Shown here piece after piece: positions 23,797-63,530 of a stretch of DNA of 64,000 nt. Position numbers and translations under genes: made by a program. Origin of the DNA: Minisyncoccota bacterium (GTDB lineage: Bacteria > Patescibacteriota > Minisyncoccia > Phycocordibacterales > Phycocordibacteraceae); the NCBI GenBank assembly GCA_028695415.1, contig JAQVIY010000001.1, forward strand, positions 113,067 to 177,066. The letters run 5' to 3'. The first letter of the stretch is position 1, and each line of letters begins with the position of its first letter. The notes under the pieces are model-generated. The model made no database searches. It saw only the letters and a program-made list of their open reading frames with translations, and was not told where the DNA came from.

Positions 23797-25053
23797 ATGA
23801 CTAGTCTCGCAGACGATTTGCAGGCACGCGGGCTCATTGAGCTCTCGTCTGCTGAACCGGAGAAGATACTCTCCACACCGCGTACCGCGTATATCGGCAC
23901 CGACCCGACTGCCGACTCTCTTCATGTTGGCCATCTCGCGTGGATACTCCTTATGAAGCGCCTTGGCGACGCCGGCCATAAGCTCCTGATTCTCGTCGGC
24001 GGCGGTACCGGTATGATTGGCGACCCGAAAGAGACGGGCGAGCGCCCTATGCTCGATGAGAAAACGGTTGCTCGTAATACTCGCGCGCTCAAAGCACAAT
24101 TGAAACAAATCCTCGGGCGCGTTCCGTTCAAGATGGTCGATAACGCCGATTGGCTTATGGGCACCAAGCTCATACCGTTCCTGCGCGATGTGGGGAAATA
24201 TTTCACCGTAAACGATTTGATAAAACGCGAAATTATCAAGAAGCGGCTCGATGATCCTAACGAGAGCATTTCGTATACTGAGTTCACTTATGCGCTCCTG
24301 CAGGGCTTCGATTACTACACGCTTCACCAGAAGTACGGCGTCGACCTACAGCTCGGCGGCTCTGATCAATGGACGAATGTCCTCTCGGGCGTCGACCTTA
24401 TCCATAAGCGCCTCGGTACGCAGGTGTATGCGCTCGGGATGCCGCTCGTTACTGACGCCTCGGGCAAGAAGTTTGGCAAGTCAGAAGGGAATGCGATCTG
24501 GCTCGACCCGAAGAAGACTTCGCCCTTCCGCTTCTACCAGTTCTGGATAAACCTCCCCGATGCCGGCATCGAGAAATACCTGAAGACCTACACTTTCCTC
24601 CCGCTCAATGAAATAAGCGCTCTTATGGAGCTCCATACCCGCAATCCGGGCGAGCGTCAGGCACAAGAGACCCTCGCACGGCTCGTGACCGAGATTGTCC
24701 ACGGCCCCGCGGCAGTCGCTCAAGCCGCCGCCGCCTCTGATGCGCTGTTTGGTGAGACACCGTTCCACGAGCTCTCGGGACCAGCACTCCAAGTCGCGCT
24801 CGCCGAAGCGCCGTCCGTCACCCTTTCCAAGAAAGACGTCGCCGATGGCTCTTCGCTTGCTGAAGCGCTTGTCGCAGGCGGCCTTGCGACGTCGAAATCA
24901 GATGCGCGACGACTCATCGAAGGGAAGGGCATCACGCTCTCGGGTCAGACCATCACCGACCCTGATCTAAAGCTCTATCCGGGCGATCTCTCACACGGCT
25001 ATGCGCTCGTGCGCAAGGGTAAACAGGGTGTGCTGATTCTCGTTTTGAAATAA
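23797..25053 (+). CDS. tyrS: tyrosyl-tRNA synthetase
   Basis: HVGHL (HIGH-type) motif, KFGKS (KMSKS-type) motif and a C-terminal S4 domain. Confidence 0.92.
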   Translation: MTSLADDLQARGLIELSSAEPEKILSTPRTAYIGTDPTADSLHVGHLAWILLMKRLGDAGHKLLILVGGGTGMIGDPKETGERPMLDEKTVARNTRALKAQLKQILGRVPFKMVDNADWLMGTKLIPFLRDVGKYFTVNDLIKREIIKKRLDDPNESISYTEFTYALLQGFDYYTLHQKYGVDLQLGGSDQWTNVLSGVDLIHKRLGTQVYALGMPLVTDASGKKFGKSEGNAIWLDPKKTSPFRFYQFWINLPDAGIEKYLKTYTFLPLNEISALMELHTRNPGERQAQETLARLVTEIVHGPAAVAQAAAASDALFGETPFHELSGPALQVALAEAPSVTLSKKDVADGSSLAEALVAGGLATSKSDARRLIEGKGITLSGQTITDPDLKLYPGDLSHGYALVRKGKQGVLILVLK

Positions 25054-25085
25054 GGACCGAAATCGGCTATACTGCCGGAGTAATT

Positions 25086-25172
25086 GCGTCGGTGGCGGAG
25101 TGGTCAATCGCAACAGACTGTAAATCTGTCGGGCATAGCCCTACGAAGGTTCGAATCCTTCCCGGCGCACCA
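25086..25172 (+). tRNA. tRNA-Tyr (anticodon GTA), type II long variable arm, CCA encoded
   Basis: Hand-folded cloverleaf. Acceptor gcgtcgg/ccggcgc, anticodon loop ctGTAaa, variable arm cgggcatagccctac, T-arm gaagg-ttcgaat-ccttc. Confidence 0.8.
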
Positions 25173-26533: not shown

Positions 26534-26719
26534 AACGAACACGGCAAAACAGGTCATCGCCCACGTGCCGGAAACGAGTGCCATGGCGATTGCCGTCTCT
26601 GTCGCGGCTTCAAGAACTGCTTTCTGCAGCGGGTGCAAAGGGAACATGATTGAACCCTCCTTTCTGCTTCAACGATATCGCTCCGCAATGGTTCGTCAAG
26701 GTATGCTATGGTACAACAT

Positions 26720-27679
26720 ATGTCCGGCTCTAAACCCGTACTCGTCTCCGGCGTAAAGCCGACCGGCGACCTGCATATCGGCAACTACTTTGGCGCGATG
26801 CGTCAGCAAGTCGAGCTCGCAAAAAGCGGCAAATATACGCCGTTCATATTCGTCGCTGACTACCACGCCTTGAACACGATGCAAGACGCCGAGGAAATGC
26901 GTCGCCGCACCCGCGAGCTCGTGATGGCGTATCTCGCCGTCGGCCTCGACCCAAAAGAGGTCACCTTCTTCAAGCAGTCAGACGTACCGGCGCATACTGA
27001 ACTCTGTTGGATATTCGACGCTATCACCACGATGCCCTACCTCATGCGTGCGCACGCTTTCAAGGACGCGGAGGCAAAAAATAAAGAAATAACCGTCGGT
27101 ACCTTCAACTACCCGATGCTCATGGCGGCCGACATCCTCCTCTACGACGCGGCAATCGTACCGGTAGGGCAGGACCAGAAACAGCACATCGAATATGCAC
27201 GCGACACCGCCGAGAAATTCAATCGCATCTTCAAAGAAGAGGTGTTCACGCTTCCCGAGCCGTACATCATGCCCGAGGTCGCCGTCGTCCCCGGCACCGA
27301 CGGGCAGAAGATGAGCAAGAGCTACGGGAACGTCATCCCGCTCTTCGCTTCGAGAGACGAGCTTACAAAGGCGGTGATGAGTATCGTGACCGACTCTTCA
27401 GGCGGCCGCCCTGAAAATGTGTTCGCCATTCATAAGCTTATCCGCGACGAATCAGAGCTCAACTCCGTGTATGAGCGGAACGCGGGGAATTATAAGGCGT
27501 TGAAAGAGATGCTTATCGAAGACCTCGATGTATTCATCACGCCGATGCGGGTGAAATATGAAGAACTCAAACGTGACCCCAGCATCGTCGACGCTGCTCT
27601 CACGAAGGGTCGCCAAGAAGCCCGCGCCGTCTCTGAAGCAAAGATGCAGGAGGTACGCCACGCTATTGGTGTGGCGTAA
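26720..27679 (+). CDS. trpS: tryptophanyl-tRNA synthetase
   Basis: SGVKPTGDLHIGNY (HIGH region) and KMSKS motif. Confidence 0.92.
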   Translation: MSGSKPVLVSGVKPTGDLHIGNYFGAMRQQVELAKSGKYTPFIFVADYHALNTMQDAEEMRRRTRELVMAYLAVGLDPKEVTFFKQSDVPAHTELCWIFDAITTMPYLMRAHAFKDAEAKNKEITVGTFNYPMLMAADILLYDAAIVPVGQDQKQHIEYARDTAEKFNRIFKEEVFTLPEPYIMPEVAVVPGTDGQKMSKSYGNVIPLFASRDELTKAVMSIVTDSSGGRPENVFAIHKLIRDESELNSVYERNAGNYKALKEMLIEDLDVFITPMRVKYEELKRDPSIVDAALTKGRQEARAVSEAKMQEVRHAIGVA

Positions 27680-36208: not shown

Positions 36209-37536
36209 GTCGGCCACGTTCTGTATTTTTATTTTCGCTGTTCGCTGTCTTCCTTTTTCCTGGTGTCTCATACGCACAAACGGCTGATTCCCTGCAAGCC
36301 CAGATAAACGCGAACAATGTTCAGCTTGATGCCATCAAGGCAGATATCGCCGCCTATCAGAAACAGCTCGATGCGCTTGGCGAGAAGAAGAACACACTTC
36401 AATCAACCGTTAGTTCGCTTACCATCTCACAGAAACAGCTCGCCTCGCAGATACAGCTCACGCAGAGCCAGATAGCTTCGGCGAACCTGCAAATACGGCA
36501 ACTGACGAACTCTATCGGCGACAAGGAGGCTTCCATATCCTCTGATCAGGCGGCTATCTCGAAGGCGCTTCGTGTCGTGGCGGCGGGCGAAGAGCGGCCG
36601 CTTATCACGAGCCTCATATCCTCGGGCTCTCTCGGGGAAGCGTGGCGTCTCGCCGATCAGATGACGCAATTCAATCAGGCTCTCGCAGACAATATCAGCC
36701 ACCTGCGTATCGCGCGGACTCAGCTCACGACAAACCGCGATGCGGTGACGAAAGCGAAAGCAGATCTCGTCGCGCTTCAGAATCAGCTCACGGTGCAGAA
36801 GCGCTCCGTCGATGCAAGTAAGAATGCGCAAACGCAGCTCTTGGCACAGACGAAGAATCAGGAGGCGAACTACCAGAAGCTCCTCGCGCAGAAACAGGCG
36901 GCGGAAAAAGACTTTGAACAGGAGCTTCTCAATCTCCAAGGGCAGCTCAATCTCGTCGTGCATCCGAACCTTCTCCCGAAGGTCGGCTCGGGCGTACTCG
37001 TGTGGCCTATGAGCAATGCCTTTATGTTCAACTGTGCGGCACGCAAAAACGTGTTCGGAAATATCTTCTGCATCACGCAGTACTTCGGCACGACCGCATT
37101 CTCAACCGCCAATGCGCAGGTCTATAATGGTCATGGCCATAATGCCATAGACATAGGCGCACCTATCGGCACGCCGCTCTATGCGGCACTCGACGGCACC
37201 GTGCTCGCGACCGGTAACACCGACCTCGTGCGCGGCTGTTACTCGTTCGGCAAGTGGGTGATGATCACGCACGGCAACGGCCTCTCGACGCTCTATGCGC
37301 ACCTCTCTGAAATAGATGTAGCGAAAGGGCAGTGGGTGAGTACGAAACAGCTCATAGGCCTCTCCGGCATGACTGGGTATGCGACCGGCCCGCATCTCCA
37401 CTTTGGCGTATACGCGACCGAGGGTACGCAGATAATGACCTTGAAGCAATTCCGCAGTACGAACACTTCCTGTGCGAACGCGACGATGCCGGTCGCGACG
37501 CTCTCCGCATACCTGAATCCGTTGTCGTACCTCTGA
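36205..37536 (+). CDS. secreted M23-family metallopeptidase with a long N-terminal coiled coil (EnvC/LytM-like)
   Basis: Signal peptide and coiled coil. C-terminal HGHNAIDIG...GPHLHFG LytM motifs. Confidence 0.85.
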   Translation: MSRPRSVFLFSLFAVFLFPGVSYAQTADSLQAQINANNVQLDAIKADIAAYQKQLDALGEKKNTLQSTVSSLTISQKQLASQIQLTQSQIASANLQIRQLTNSIGDKEASISSDQAAISKALRVVAAGEERPLITSLISSGSLGEAWRLADQMTQFNQALADNISHLRIARTQLTTNRDAVTKAKADLVALQNQLTVQKRSVDASKNAQTQLLAQTKNQEANYQKLLAQKQAAEKDFEQELLNLQGQLNLVVHPNLLPKVGSGVLVWPMSNAFMFNCAARKNVFGNIFCITQYFGTTAFSTANAQVYNGHGHNAIDIGAPIGTPLYAALDGTVLATGNTDLVRGCYSFGKWVMITHGNGLSTLYAHLSEIDVAKGQWVSTKQLIGLSGMTGYATGPHLHFGVYATEGTQIMTLKQFRSTNTSCANATMPVATLSAYLNPLSYL

Positions 37537-37840: not shown

Positions 37841-38320
37841 CTAGATTCTCCCCTTTCGTTTAATACGGTCTGACTGTGCTTTTATATCAGATAACTTTTG
37901 CTCCAAATCTTTATCGAGCGGGCGGCTTTTTCCTGTTATTTCTTTTTGTCTGTGAGCATAGAGCAGTTTTACTGCTTGGCTCCATAACTCAAAGTCTTTC
38001 GCTTTTGTACCAAACAGGTGATTTTTCTCAAAGAAGGGGACTATAACGTCATGCAGCTCGGATGTGTTCTGGACAGAATAACGAACCTGATCCCCTGCTC
38101 TTTTGAAAGATATATTACCTACACTAAATTTGTCTCTAATGAGTTCGAGAAGTCCGGCATCTGATGGATGCAACACAATTGCAAATTCAGTTTTCCAATA
38201 ATGATACTCATACAGTATATTTCCATCATCGTCATATCTTTTATCTGCTCGATAGTTCAGAGCAAAACATCCTTCGCCATCAACAAAACCAGCGACGTAG
38301 CTGTCGTCGAGACCTTTCAT
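37841..38320 (-). CDS. free-standing LAGLIDADG homing endonuclease (single-motif, I-CreI-like size)
   Basis: YVAGFVDGEGCF LAGLIDADG motif near the N-terminus, about 159 aa, sitting in a conspicuously AT-rich islet. Confidence 0.75.
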   Translation of the reverse strand: MKGLDDSYVAGFVDGEGCFALNYRADKRYDDDGNILYEYHYWKTEFAIVLHPSDAGLLELIRDKFSVGNISFKRAGDQVRYSVQNTSELHDVIVPFFEKNHLFGTKAKDFELWSQAVKLLYAHRQKEITGKSRPLDKDLEQKLSDIKAQSDRIKRKGRI

Positions 38321-38582: not shown

Positions 38583-39350
38583 TCAACACGAAACGTTTGT
38601 CGTGATGTAATCGTACGCCTCGTCAACAGAATCGACGACGGTATAGAGATCCATATCGCCCTTATCGATGGCGGCATGACCCTGATAGATAGTCTTTTCG
38701 ATAAAGCCGAGCAAGGGGCCCCAGTAATCCTTGCCGTAGAGAATGATAGGAACCTTGCGTATTTTCTTGGTCTGAACGAGCGTTACTATTTCGAAGAATT
38801 CATCGAGCGTACCGAATCCGCCCGGGAAATAAATATATACTTCGGACGCGTACGTCAGCATCACTTTGCGTACAAAGAAGTGGTCGAACCCGAATCGCTC
38901 GGTAAGGAACGGATTATAGCTCTGAGACTCCGGCAGATTGATATTGAGCCCAACCGAGGCACCGCCGACCTCGAAGGCGCCTTTATTGGCCGCCTGCATG
39001 ATACCTGAGGAGCCGCCAGTGACGATGGCAAAACCTTTTTCTGCGAGACGCTTCGCCAACTCCTCAGCGCGTTCATAGGAGTCGTCGCCTAAGGTCGCGC
39101 GCGACGAGCCGAAGAATGATGCGGCGAGGCCGTGTCGGCGAATAATATCAAACCCTTCGACAAACTCTGACATTATCTTGAAAATGCGCCACGATTCTAT
39201 CTTCCTCGGCTTACAGACGAGCAAAGGCCGATCCTCGGCTTCGGGCATCGTACGCCCGCCTTCGTGAACTACCTGCGCGAGACGTTCGGTTGTCTTATGA
39301 ATACCCGCTGATTGGATAATCGGCTCTTCGCCGGTAATGTCCTCATTCAT
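38583..39350 (-). CDS. LOG-family protein (cytokinin riboside 5'-monophosphate phosphoribohydrolase / TIGR00730)
   Basis: IVTGGSSGIMQAANKGA and PGGFGTLDEFFE motifs. Confidence 0.85.
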   Translation of the reverse strand: MNEDITGEEPIIQSAGIHKTTERLAQVVHEGGRTMPEAEDRPLLVCKPRKIESWRIFKIMSEFVEGFDIIRRHGLAASFFGSSRATLGDDSYERAEELAKRLAEKGFAIVTGGSSGIMQAANKGAFEVGGASVGLNINLPESQSYNPFLTERFGFDHFFVRKVMLTYASEVYIYFPGGFGTLDEFFEIVTLVQTKKIRKVPIILYGKDYWGPLLGFIEKTIYQGHAAIDKGDMDLYTVVDSVDEAYDYITTNVSC

Positions 39351-63233: not shown

Positions 63234-63305
63234 GGCCTCATCGTCTAACGGCTAGGACAGATCCCTCTCACGGATCAAATCGGGGTTCGATTCCCCGTGA
63301 GGTCA
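63234..63305 (+). tRNA. tRNA-Glu (anticodon CTC); CCA not encoded
   Basis: Hand-folded. Acceptor ggcctca/tgaggtc (one G-U pair), D-arm gtc-taacggctag-gac, anticodon stem gatcc/ggatc with loop ctCTCac, T-arm cgggg-ttcgatt-ccccg. Confidence 0.75.
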
Positions 63306-63354
63306 CAAGCGGCCAGCCGAGAAGCGTAAGCTTCTCGGCTGTTGCCGTCTTGTA

Positions 63355-63498
63355 GACCTCACGGGGAATCGAAGGCGAGCGCGAGTGGCCGGCTCAGCAG
63401 AGCCGGTCGCGCGAGCGTGGTCAGGCGGAGCGAGGAGTGACGACGACGAAGCGAGCGCTTGACCGAAACCGTAATCGGGGTTCCCCGTGAGGTCACCA
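63355..63498 (+). repeat. inverted (63355..63373) and direct degenerate (63474..63498, ending CCA) copies of the tRNA-Glu 3' end, bracketing GC-rich hairpins
   Basis: gacctcacggggaatcgaa is the reverse complement of the tRNA T-arm/acceptor. atcggggtt-ccccgtgaggtcacca repeats the tRNA 3' end with a 5-nt T-loop deletion. Confidence 0.6.
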
Positions 63499-63502
63499 GA
63501 GC

Positions 63503-63530
63503 AAAAACCGCCCTCGGGCGGTTTTTGCTT
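63503..63530 (+). terminator. rho-independent terminator
   Basis: aaaaaccgccc-tcg-ggcggtttttgcttt hairpin with T-tract. Confidence 0.8.

Follow-up and report, generated by a model that had tools for sequence, protein, structure and literature searches.

Downstream of a tRNA-Glu gene of a Minisyncoccota bacterium (contig JAQVIY010000001.1) the 3' end of the tRNA gene recurs twice within a short distance, once inverted and once direct. The question raised by this locus is to what kind of unit these copies belong. A preliminary description, made from the letters of the 64,000-nt stretch of DNA which is called the window here, had offered two readings: the scar of a decayed integrase-borne element, or a single structured RNA derived from the tRNA. 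One half of each is retained in this study. The duplicated 3' end is indeed the trace of an insertion behind the tRNA, as is seen from relatives with empty and occupied sites, but the insert is not a decayed scar. A structured unit with a predicted tRNA-derived closing stem is indeed present at 63355-63495, but it sits inside the insertion and is neither a tmRNA nor a tRNA. We are confident about the family, the conserved fold and the insertion described below. This family of small structured cassettes behind tRNA genes of Patescibacteria is apparently previously undescribed; a full-text search of the literature found no description of the cassette. The Patescibacteria (CPR) account for a very large and poorly understood share of bacterial diversity and have tiny genomes.

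Anatomy of the locus

Table 1. Features of the tRNA-Glu locus, in positions of the window.
Feature	Position	Strand	Basis and remarks
tRNA-Glu (anticodon CUC)	63234-63305	+	ARAGORN; Rfam RF00005 tRNA, 57.1 bits
P0 hairpin	63307-63351	+	Repeat finder, fold prediction
Antisense arm	63355-63373	+	Exact reverse complement of tRNA positions 54-72, 19/19 against 63286-63304 (repeat finder)
P1 closing stem	63355-63370 with 63479-63494	+	Fold prediction; 16 bp including one G-U
P2 hairpin	63375-63418	+	Fold prediction; covariation in relatives
P3 hairpin	63419-63464	+	Base GGUCAGGCG...CGCUUGACC; fold prediction, family alignment
P4 mini-hairpin CCG-UAAU-CGG	63469-63478	+	Fold prediction; optional in family
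Distal sense arm	63479-63495	+	3' strand of P1 (63479-63494) and discriminator A
Native flank of the tRNA	63496-63529	+	CCA, then intrinsic-terminator-like hairpin 63500-63529 with 14-nt arms

According to ARAGORN and Rfam the tRNA-Glu gene is intact and encodes no CCA, as had been described. Its discriminator A is position 63305, and the isolated segment is predicted to fold as a cloverleaf. The last 19 nt in front of the discriminator (63286-63304) are the template for both arms of the downstream unit (Table 1). The inverted copy of T-arm and acceptor had rightly been called exact; it covers the T-loop as well as the 3' strands of the T-stem and the acceptor stem, and its segment 63355-63370 would provide the 5' strand of the closing stem P1. 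The antisense arm of the window scores 19 with the tRNA end and 14-16 with the distal arm.

The direct copy is part of an exact repeat of 16 nt, TTCCCCGTGAGGTCAC, which was located by the repeat finder at 63291-63306 and 63481-63496 with a spacing of 190 nt. The final 15 nt of the distal arm (63481-63495) copy positions 63291-63305 of the tRNA-Glu gene. The additional claim that this copy is missing 5 nt of the T-loop had to be given up, since the segment in question is made up of P4 and the 3' strand of P1. The sequence AATCGGGGTTC is also present twice, at 63278 and 63473. The 12-mer CCCCGTGAGGTC, which comprises the last 12 nt before the discriminator, occurs three times in the 64 kb, all within 200 nt and in the order direct, inverted, direct; shuffled sequence contains on average 0.18 matches to it if up to one mismatch is allowed.

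The hairpin after the tRNA, described before as a 10-bp stem, is real and somewhat longer. Its apical stem is perfect over 12 bp (63314-63325/63330-63341) with the loop GUAA and lies within the longer, imperfect hairpin P0, which has a conserved UU bulge. There is no U-tract 3' of P0, therefore P0 is not a canonical terminator. P2 has a conserved apical loop AGCA(G) and a GA-rich internal motif GCGAGCG...GCGAGCG. In relatives the middle helix of P3 covaries and carries the loop GCGACGGCG; in the window the middle helix of P3 (GAC repeats) is poorly paired. The distal helix of P3 also pairs poorly there, so that the window copy of the cassette may be partly decayed. The small stem of P4 covaries across the family (CUG/CAG, GCG/CGC, GGCG/CGCC, GUGG/CCAC). 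At the downstream end the preliminary description had placed a strong terminator. An inverted repeat is found there, but a strict terminator scan made no call on 63500-63529. The terminator-like hairpin also faces the convergent murF gene.

The 302-nt region folds far more stably than its shuffles (z = -11.7), in line with the structure that had been suspected there. In a scan of the locus with Rfam 15 only the tRNA at 63234-63305 passes; the downstream matches at E <= 10 are unrelated and far below the thresholds, and no tmRNA family is among them. This bears on a reading of the unit as a tmRNA-like or otherwise chargeable tRNA-like RNA, which would combine an acceptor mimic with a short reading frame. 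The 7-bp acceptor-like stem, extended to 16 bp, and the free ACCA in the window would suit such an RNA, but positions 3:70 are C-G instead of G-U, a T-loop is missing and conservation does not extend to the CCA. By eye the window has a frame ...DDDEASA*, but it is not conserved in L032, L060 and L042 (relatives are designated by such locus numbers). The 5' end of the unit, GGGGAAUCGAAG, bears a loose likeness to the tmRNA 5' region; however, ARAGORN detects a tmRNA neither in the window nor in 22 loci of the family, and the arms change with the neighbouring tRNA. The tmRNA-like reading is essentially refuted and is given next to no credence here.

Three other candidates were rejected as well. 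A second tRNA or a tRNA pseudogene does not fit, as ARAGORN and Rfam call only 63234-63305 and the 5' arm is antisense to the tRNA end, not a tRNA 5' half. A tag peptide does not fit either, as the frame ending at a TGA in the base of P3 is by eye not conserved among relatives. Finally, the antisense arm cannot be a primer-binding site, because it pairs neither with the discriminator nor with CCA, so that the tRNA could not prime.

Empty and occupied sites among relatives

A search in one genome per species with the last 20 nt of the tRNA gave at least 119 loci, nearly all of those listed being from Patescibacteria. The locus L048 (Paceibacterota) is syntenic with the window and has in common with it a 1553-aa surface or secreted protein, tRNA-Glu and murF. 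Window positions 63306-63495, P0 included, have no counterpart in L048; its tRNA is directly followed by ...ACCCGCAAGTAAAAACCGCCCTAGAGCGGTTTTTAC..., a homologue of window 63496-63530. The junction from tRNA-Glu to terminator is the same in L056 and L018 as in L048. Because the tRNA runs straight into the terminator in these three loci, the 190 nt between the tRNA and its native flank in the window are recognised as extra sequence. The CCA after the distal copy is present as noted earlier. Judged from these junctions it belongs to the native sequence behind the tRNA, and it is not conserved, most relatives having ACAA at this place.

A second, independent pair of sites was found via a search for MurF homologues, which does not depend on any DNA pattern. 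The best matches in that search were just 74-77% identical and many contigs only about 1 kb long; with repeated tRNA ends and long palindromes present, such short contigs are compatible with assembly breaks near the locus. The pair consists of the occupied locus L238 and the empty locus L237 and belongs to a tRNA-Glu lineage with a different acceptor stem. In L238 the distal arm has CCCGG like the empty-site relative, and the proximal tRNA has CCCAG. In this pair, the only one that discriminates, the distal copy has what would be expected of a native tRNA end that was moved downstream. The insert is flanked by a direct repeat of the 3' segment of the tRNA, with the intact tRNA at one end, and the comparison of these loci shows that the insertion is polymorphic among relatives.

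Distribution of the family and conservation of the fold

At least 24 of the 119 listed tRNA-Glu loci contain a comparable module directly behind the tRNA, and a metagenome scan revealed 25 further loci; the family spans dozens of loci of Patescibacteria. About 80% of the listed tRNA-Glu loci in the phylum, including syntenic relatives, are without the module. The order of parts is P0, the arm antisense to tRNA positions 54-72, a core of P2 and P3, the optional P4 and the sense copy of the tRNA end, and the cassette ends at a direct copy of the last 16-18 nt of the tRNA.

For 15 units of the window type a plain MAFFT alignment was analysed with RNAalifold, which gave 37 pairs; compensatory changes are seen in 19. 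The same alignment served to build a covariance model, which has 22 matches at E <= 1e-9, representing 20 distinct sequences, and the window copy is matched at full length with 90 bits. In the model-fitted alignment 92.5% of the cells are paired, as opposed to 73.8% in column shuffles (none of 500 shuffles reaches the observed value) and 29-50% in slid controls, and compensatory changes are found in 29 of the 37 pairs. The apical helix of P2 has them in all of its eight pairs. Among six homologous P0 hairpins, 9 of 16 pairs show compensatory changes. Most of the tRNA-Glu units were retrieved by a pattern which requires both arms, so that the conservation of P1 in them is circular; P1 is tested independently only by the tRNA-Val, tRNA-Ser and L238 units, which were found via the core or a neighbouring protein.

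G-U pairs outnumber A-C combinations by 53 to 10 in the family alignment. The folded strand is therefore the sense strand, which carries the tRNA, and the alignments taken together show that the fold is conserved on that strand.

The arms follow the neighbouring tRNA

According to the covariance model the same core also follows two other tRNAs, namely tRNA-Val(GAC) in L144, L117 and L019 and tRNA-Ser(CGA) in L002 and L066. The 3' end of the local tRNA is represented in antisense by the 5' arm of these units and in sense by their 3' arm. Sense arms score 10-19 with the local tRNA and at most 10 with other tRNAs; for the antisense arms the corresponding values are 7-19 and at most 11. Both arms of L238 derive from its own tRNA-Glu with the different acceptor. 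In the genome of L144 cores that are about 88% alike (by eye) are located behind tRNA-Glu and tRNA-Val, and the arms differ. These comparisons show that the arms match whichever tRNA lies upstream, and the targets of a single core include four or more different tRNAs. We know of no mechanism by which both arms could be rewritten upon a change of the target tRNA.

In none of the 14 units that were checked does the antisense arm match its own distal arm better than the proximal tRNA end. Together with the 3' half of the tRNA and P0 the antisense arm makes up a near-perfect palindrome of 88 nt. The feature that is selected, or that generates the unit, may be this long palindrome of tRNA, P0 and antisense arm, at the level of RNA or DNA, and not P1.

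Turnover, tandem arrays and decay

Orthologous tRNA-Glu/murF sites are either empty (L048) or occupied by different subtypes (the window, L138, L134, L092, L032). Tandem stacks of two or three units are present in L123/L144, L141, L042 and L009, and truncated or decayed copies in L051, L055 and L046. Only in L128/L135 is a unit without a remaining upstream tRNA; all other copies seen are located behind tRNA genes. The units of L121 and L138, which belong to two tRNA-Glu isoacceptors of one assembly, have four differences in about 150 nt, one change being compensatory, and their P0 hairpins and flanks are unrelated. An ORF is located between tRNA and unit in L030 and L084. If the criteria for MITEs are applied to the arms, an inverted repeat of 16-19 nt is found, yet the right arm is itself the copy of the target.

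The pattern of turnover has to be set against the possibility that the unit is a tRNA-linked non-coding RNA which serves the host and is inherited vertically, with a patchiness caused by loss and duplication and not by mobility. Such an RNA could, for example, mimic the acceptor/T minihelix or act as its decoy, or it could be a switch for the amount of functional tRNA. Such a switch would be in keeping with the two alternative partners of the antisense arm, which can pair with the proximal or the distal tRNA end, but the arms represent the neighbouring gene sequence across several tRNAs, which differ in known recognition rules, and this is explained better by a history of insertion than by recognition by a protein. 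The position of the unit, in tRNA orientation and before the terminator, is suited to co-transcription; however, most of the listed tRNA-Glu loci, syntenic relatives among them, do without the unit, and orthologous sites carry different subtypes. Likewise, the helices and the loops (AGCAG, GCGACGGCG) are under strong purifying selection as in a host RNA, but tandem stacks and many decayed copies are not what would be expected of one. We consider a host-serving RNA of this kind unlikely.

Search for a mobilising gene

The insert of 190 nt contains no protein-sized ORF. Among 35 ORFs of the window that were scanned no recombinase family was found, and several of these ORFs matched no family; those with a match are ordinary cellular genes, except one ORF for a LAGLIDADG endonuclease 25 kb away. 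Clustering of 2,888 neighbouring ORFs from 144 loci revealed no recombinase family enriched near the units, with names assigned to just six of the top clusters. A large serine recombinase adjoins tRNA-Glu in 17 of the 144 loci (Saccharibacteria), most of them loci without units. At one tRNA-Glu locus, L022, an island of 7.5 kb encodes a large serine recombinase and has a repeat at its far end, and the island end lacks the core of the cassette.

No viral contig contains the tRNA-end 20-mer as a putative attP. A 15-mer of the core is present in 90 viral contigs, only one of which, the IMG/VR contig L147, passes the covariance model. It contains an array of Ser-type units next to housekeeping genes and looks cellular, and with such neighbours of the sole passing contig a phage- or plasmid-borne core was rejected.

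These results also bear on the decayed scar of a classical integrase-borne element, in which the repeat would represent attL/attR and the rest a functionless leftover. The duplication of the tRNA begins within the T-loop, which is the crossover site for one class of tRNA-targeting integrases, but the supposed leftover has an identical architecture in dozens of genomes, shows compensatory base changes and recurs with retargeted arms behind other tRNAs. With the L022 island and the 17 recombinase-bearing loci tRNA-Glu is a real integration site in the phylum; however, neither these loci for the most part nor the island end carry the cassette, and a viral contig with this tRNA end as attP was not found. 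The 190-nt insert leaves no room for a recombinase and is a full-length member of the family with covarying helices. The covariation already contradicts the scar, which we regard as highly improbable.

Another reading assumes that the relevant folded form is single-stranded DNA. In one variant the duplex of the two arms would reproduce the double-stranded tRNA gene as target, as in the attC sites of integrons and the attP of CTX-phi. The cassette-like tandem arrays, the ORF-bearing versions L030 and L084, the direct repeat of the target on both sides of the insert and the conserved bulged bases in imperfect hairpins are compatible with a DNA-level element in general, as is the palindrome with its antisense arm that tracks the proximal tRNA end, but by eye P1 is without R/L boxes or extrahelical bases of the attC type. 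In the other variant P0, P2 and P3 would be end hairpins of an IS200/IS605-like or REP-like element, whose Y1 (HUH) transposase is encoded elsewhere. A gene for a RAYT/IS200-like Y1 transposase is indeed located at a distance of 2 kb from the unit of L238, and two further loci have homologues of it, but two of the three loci are without units, so that the gene is not enriched near units and is a lead only. In addition, insertion of IS200/IS605 elements makes no target duplication of 16-18 nt, unlike the 16-nt target repeat present here. Folded DNA also tolerates G-T wobble pairs, which would accommodate the G-U bias, whereas the conserved loops and the GA-rich internal motifs are more typical of RNA. 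A DNA-level element is thus rather improbable in our view.

Proposed life cycle and fold of the whole transcript

The explanation which we favour, and consider reasonably probable, is a small insertion cassette which lacks a recombinase, turns over rapidly and bears a structured RNA that would be transcribed together with the tRNA. No promoter-like site is found between the tRNA and the unit. As the cassette seems to be without a promoter of its own, it would be read through from the tRNA promoter to the native, old terminator. The tRNA would fold first, and the antisense arm would then pair with the distal copy, which would give a stem of 16 bp whose 3' A(CCA) is free, a mimic of the acceptor/T-stem stack. 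Through this mimicry the enzymes that act on tRNA ends (RNase P, RNase Z or exonucleases, the CCA-adding enzyme) may be able to set free a stable RNA about 140 nt long. The pairing of P1 might also stop the spare 3' end from rivalling the real one in the folding of the tRNA. Gain, loss, swap and tandem stacking of units would take place via recombination at the repeated tRNA segment, by an enzyme acting in trans. In this model we infer the transcription, the processing and the closing stem P1. The RNA is regarded as a hitch-hiking or selfish passenger until a function for the host is shown.

For the whole transcript the fold of lowest energy has -185.7 kcal/mol, as compared with -172.5 kcal/mol for the modular fold, and its arrangement is a different one. 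In this predicted structure the antisense arm and P0 form a near-perfect hairpin of about 40 bp with the 3' half of the tRNA, and the distal copy completes the tRNA.

In a bolder reading the unit would be a mobile element of a new kind, which finds its target by complementarity of nucleic acids and not by means of a protein. A scaffold of P0, P2 and P3 would bear programmable arms which correspond to both strands of the last 17-19 bp of the tRNA gene, and the folded transcript or a single strand would steer insertion, or homing by repair, beside any matching tRNA gene, with an enzyme that is host-encoded or acts in trans. We regard such an element as a distinctly unlikely, speculative solution.

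Comparison with known systems

A recurrent, covarying element of ~140 nt without a match in Rfam, located in tRNA transcription units, is a candidate for a new RNA family of Patescibacteria. We know of no described element in which a scaffold stands between a sense and an antisense copy of the adjacent tRNA end. Its design raises the question how one scaffold, which brings no recombinase with it, comes to be directed to different tRNA genes.

With integrative elements at tRNA 3' ends, i.e. prophages and islands whose attL/attR repeats begin in the T-loop, the cassette shares that the tRNA stays intact and that its native end and terminator are displaced as a direct repeat; empty and occupied sites among relatives and tandem stacking are common to both. 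It differs from them by its size of just 190 nt, the lack of an integrase and the extra antisense copy of the tRNA end. Moreover, its interior is a covarying fold and not a set of genes, and one core is found at four or more tRNA targets. MITEs, att-flanked cis-mobilisable elements and REP/PATE sequences are like the cassette small, recombinase-less, patchy, rich in hairpins and present in many copies, some of them decayed. In contrast to them the cassette is strictly tied to tRNA 3' ends, its arms are rewritten for each target, and its G-U bias points to a folded transcript. To our knowledge there is no autonomous parent element for the cassette.

Sense and antisense target sequence beside a structured scaffold is also found in attC, the attP of CTX-phi, the bridge RNA of IS110 and TIGR-Tas. 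Unlike the guides of such systems the arms of the cassette pair with each other along their whole length. None of the genes for IS110, Nop-domain Tas or IntI stands out among the neighbours, again with six of the top clusters named, and by eye there is no box C/D or R/L box consensus (RYYYAAC/GTTRRRY) in the arms. Paired tandem TIGR-Tas guides do occur in CPR bacteria, and their units comprise 36 nt as opposed to about 140 nt in the cassette (PMC12045711). TIGR-Tas or box C/D guides were rejected, as size and layout do not fit; TIGR-Tas systems are also set in another gene context. Tandem arrays exist in integrons as well as in the cassette family; however, folding of the bottom strand as in attC is disfavoured by the preponderance of G-U over A-C.

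Like tmRNA and viral tRNA-like structures the cassette has a mimic of the acceptor stem with a single-stranded 3' end, but it is without the T-loop, the G3:U70 pair and the conserved tag frame and is missed by ARAGORN and Rfam. MALAT1 mascRNA, the tRNA-like end of MEN-beta and the 3' external spacer of E. coli glyW-cysT-leuZ are functional RNAs which are released from tRNA transcripts by tRNA-end enzymes. The cassette is likewise part of a tRNA transcription unit, and by analogy with RNAs of the mascRNA type its acceptor-like stem could recruit RNase P or RNase Z. The difference from mascRNA and the glyW-cysT-leuZ spacer is that the stem of the cassette literally copies the end of the neighbouring tRNA, and that the cassette is an insertion and not a fixed part of an operon.

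Apical loops of the core and tRNA-Glu-like pseudogenes

The conserved apical loops of the two core hairpins, P2 and P3, are swapped between the units behind tRNA-Glu and those of the Ser/Val type. The tRNA-Glu units (window 63375-63464) carry AGCAG on P2 and GCGACGGCG on P3, whereas CGACGG is found on P2 and CAGCAG on P3 in the Ser/Val-type units (loci L002 5023-5102, L019 2635-2733 and L053). The L053 pseudogenes lie immediately upstream of an intact tRNA-Glu, and insertions interrupt both their D-loop and their anticodon loop. The P2/P3 core is located within their T-loop (GGGTT-core-GATTCCC), which may be a clue to the relation between core and T-loop.

Coordinates of the features; L-numbers are loci from other genomes or contigs
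Feature	Location	Strand	Evidence
Two tandem tRNA-Glu-like pseudogenes	L053 2396-2760	-	
7.5-kb island behind tRNA-Glu, Saccharimonadales genome	L022 315-7930		
Array of Ser-type units (two or more), IMG/VR 'viral' contig	L147 2800-3319		
Tyrosyl-tRNA synthetase gene and tRNA-Tyr(GUA)	window 23797-25172		
Second class Ib synthetase	window 26708-27679		
Free-standing LAGLIDADG homing-endonuclease ORF, 159 aa	window 37841-38320	-	Pfam, E = 5e-20
IS200/RAYT-like Y1 transposase	L238 5761-6336	+	Pfam PF01797, 27.9 bits (cut-off 23)

Other elements behind tRNA genes

The L022 island encodes a large serine recombinase of 511 aa, the 3' end of whose gene runs into the tRNA. Its cargo comprises NUDIX, nucleotidyltransferase, PIN/DUF4411 and M78 peptidase genes, and its far end is marked by the repeat CCGTGAGGTCACCA followed by a terminator. 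Clustering of the neighbouring ORFs revealed that this recombinase cluster adjoins tRNA-Glu in 17 of the 144 loci.

A module of another kind is located behind tRNA-Glu in Saccharibacteria (L017, L027, L068, L045, L009, L084, L030, L115 and L047). In this module a true terminator and a small hairpin precede a stem formed by CGAACCCC/GGGGTTCG; next comes a hairpin that covaries, built around CACGCGCA..GAGCATG, and after it ATTCCCCGTGAGGTCA(CCA). In L030 and L084 an additional 0.6-0.9 kb, which holds an uncharacterised ORF of 136 or 187 aa, separates the tRNA from the module.

The L147 array adjoins ORFs which by eye appear housekeeping-like (sugar epimerase, cytidine deaminase); the contig probably represents either DNA of cellular origin or the flank of a provirus.

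Synthetase and homing-endonuclease genes of the window

The tRNA-Tyr(GUA) begins 33 nt after the tyrosyl-tRNA synthetase gene, and the cassette is absent behind it. The second class Ib synthetase is probably TrpRS. The LAGLIDADG ORF is located downstream of a run of plus-strand ORFs ending at 37536 and adjoins a LOG-like gene (38583-39350); at the gathering score Rfam detected no intron family.

Y1 transposase near a unit

The L238 transposase gene is 2 kb away from a unit. Homologues are encoded by two Paceibacterota loci without units, L102 (896-1420) and L064 (6015-6458). The substrate of IS200/RAYT-like Y1 enzymes is single-stranded DNA hairpins.
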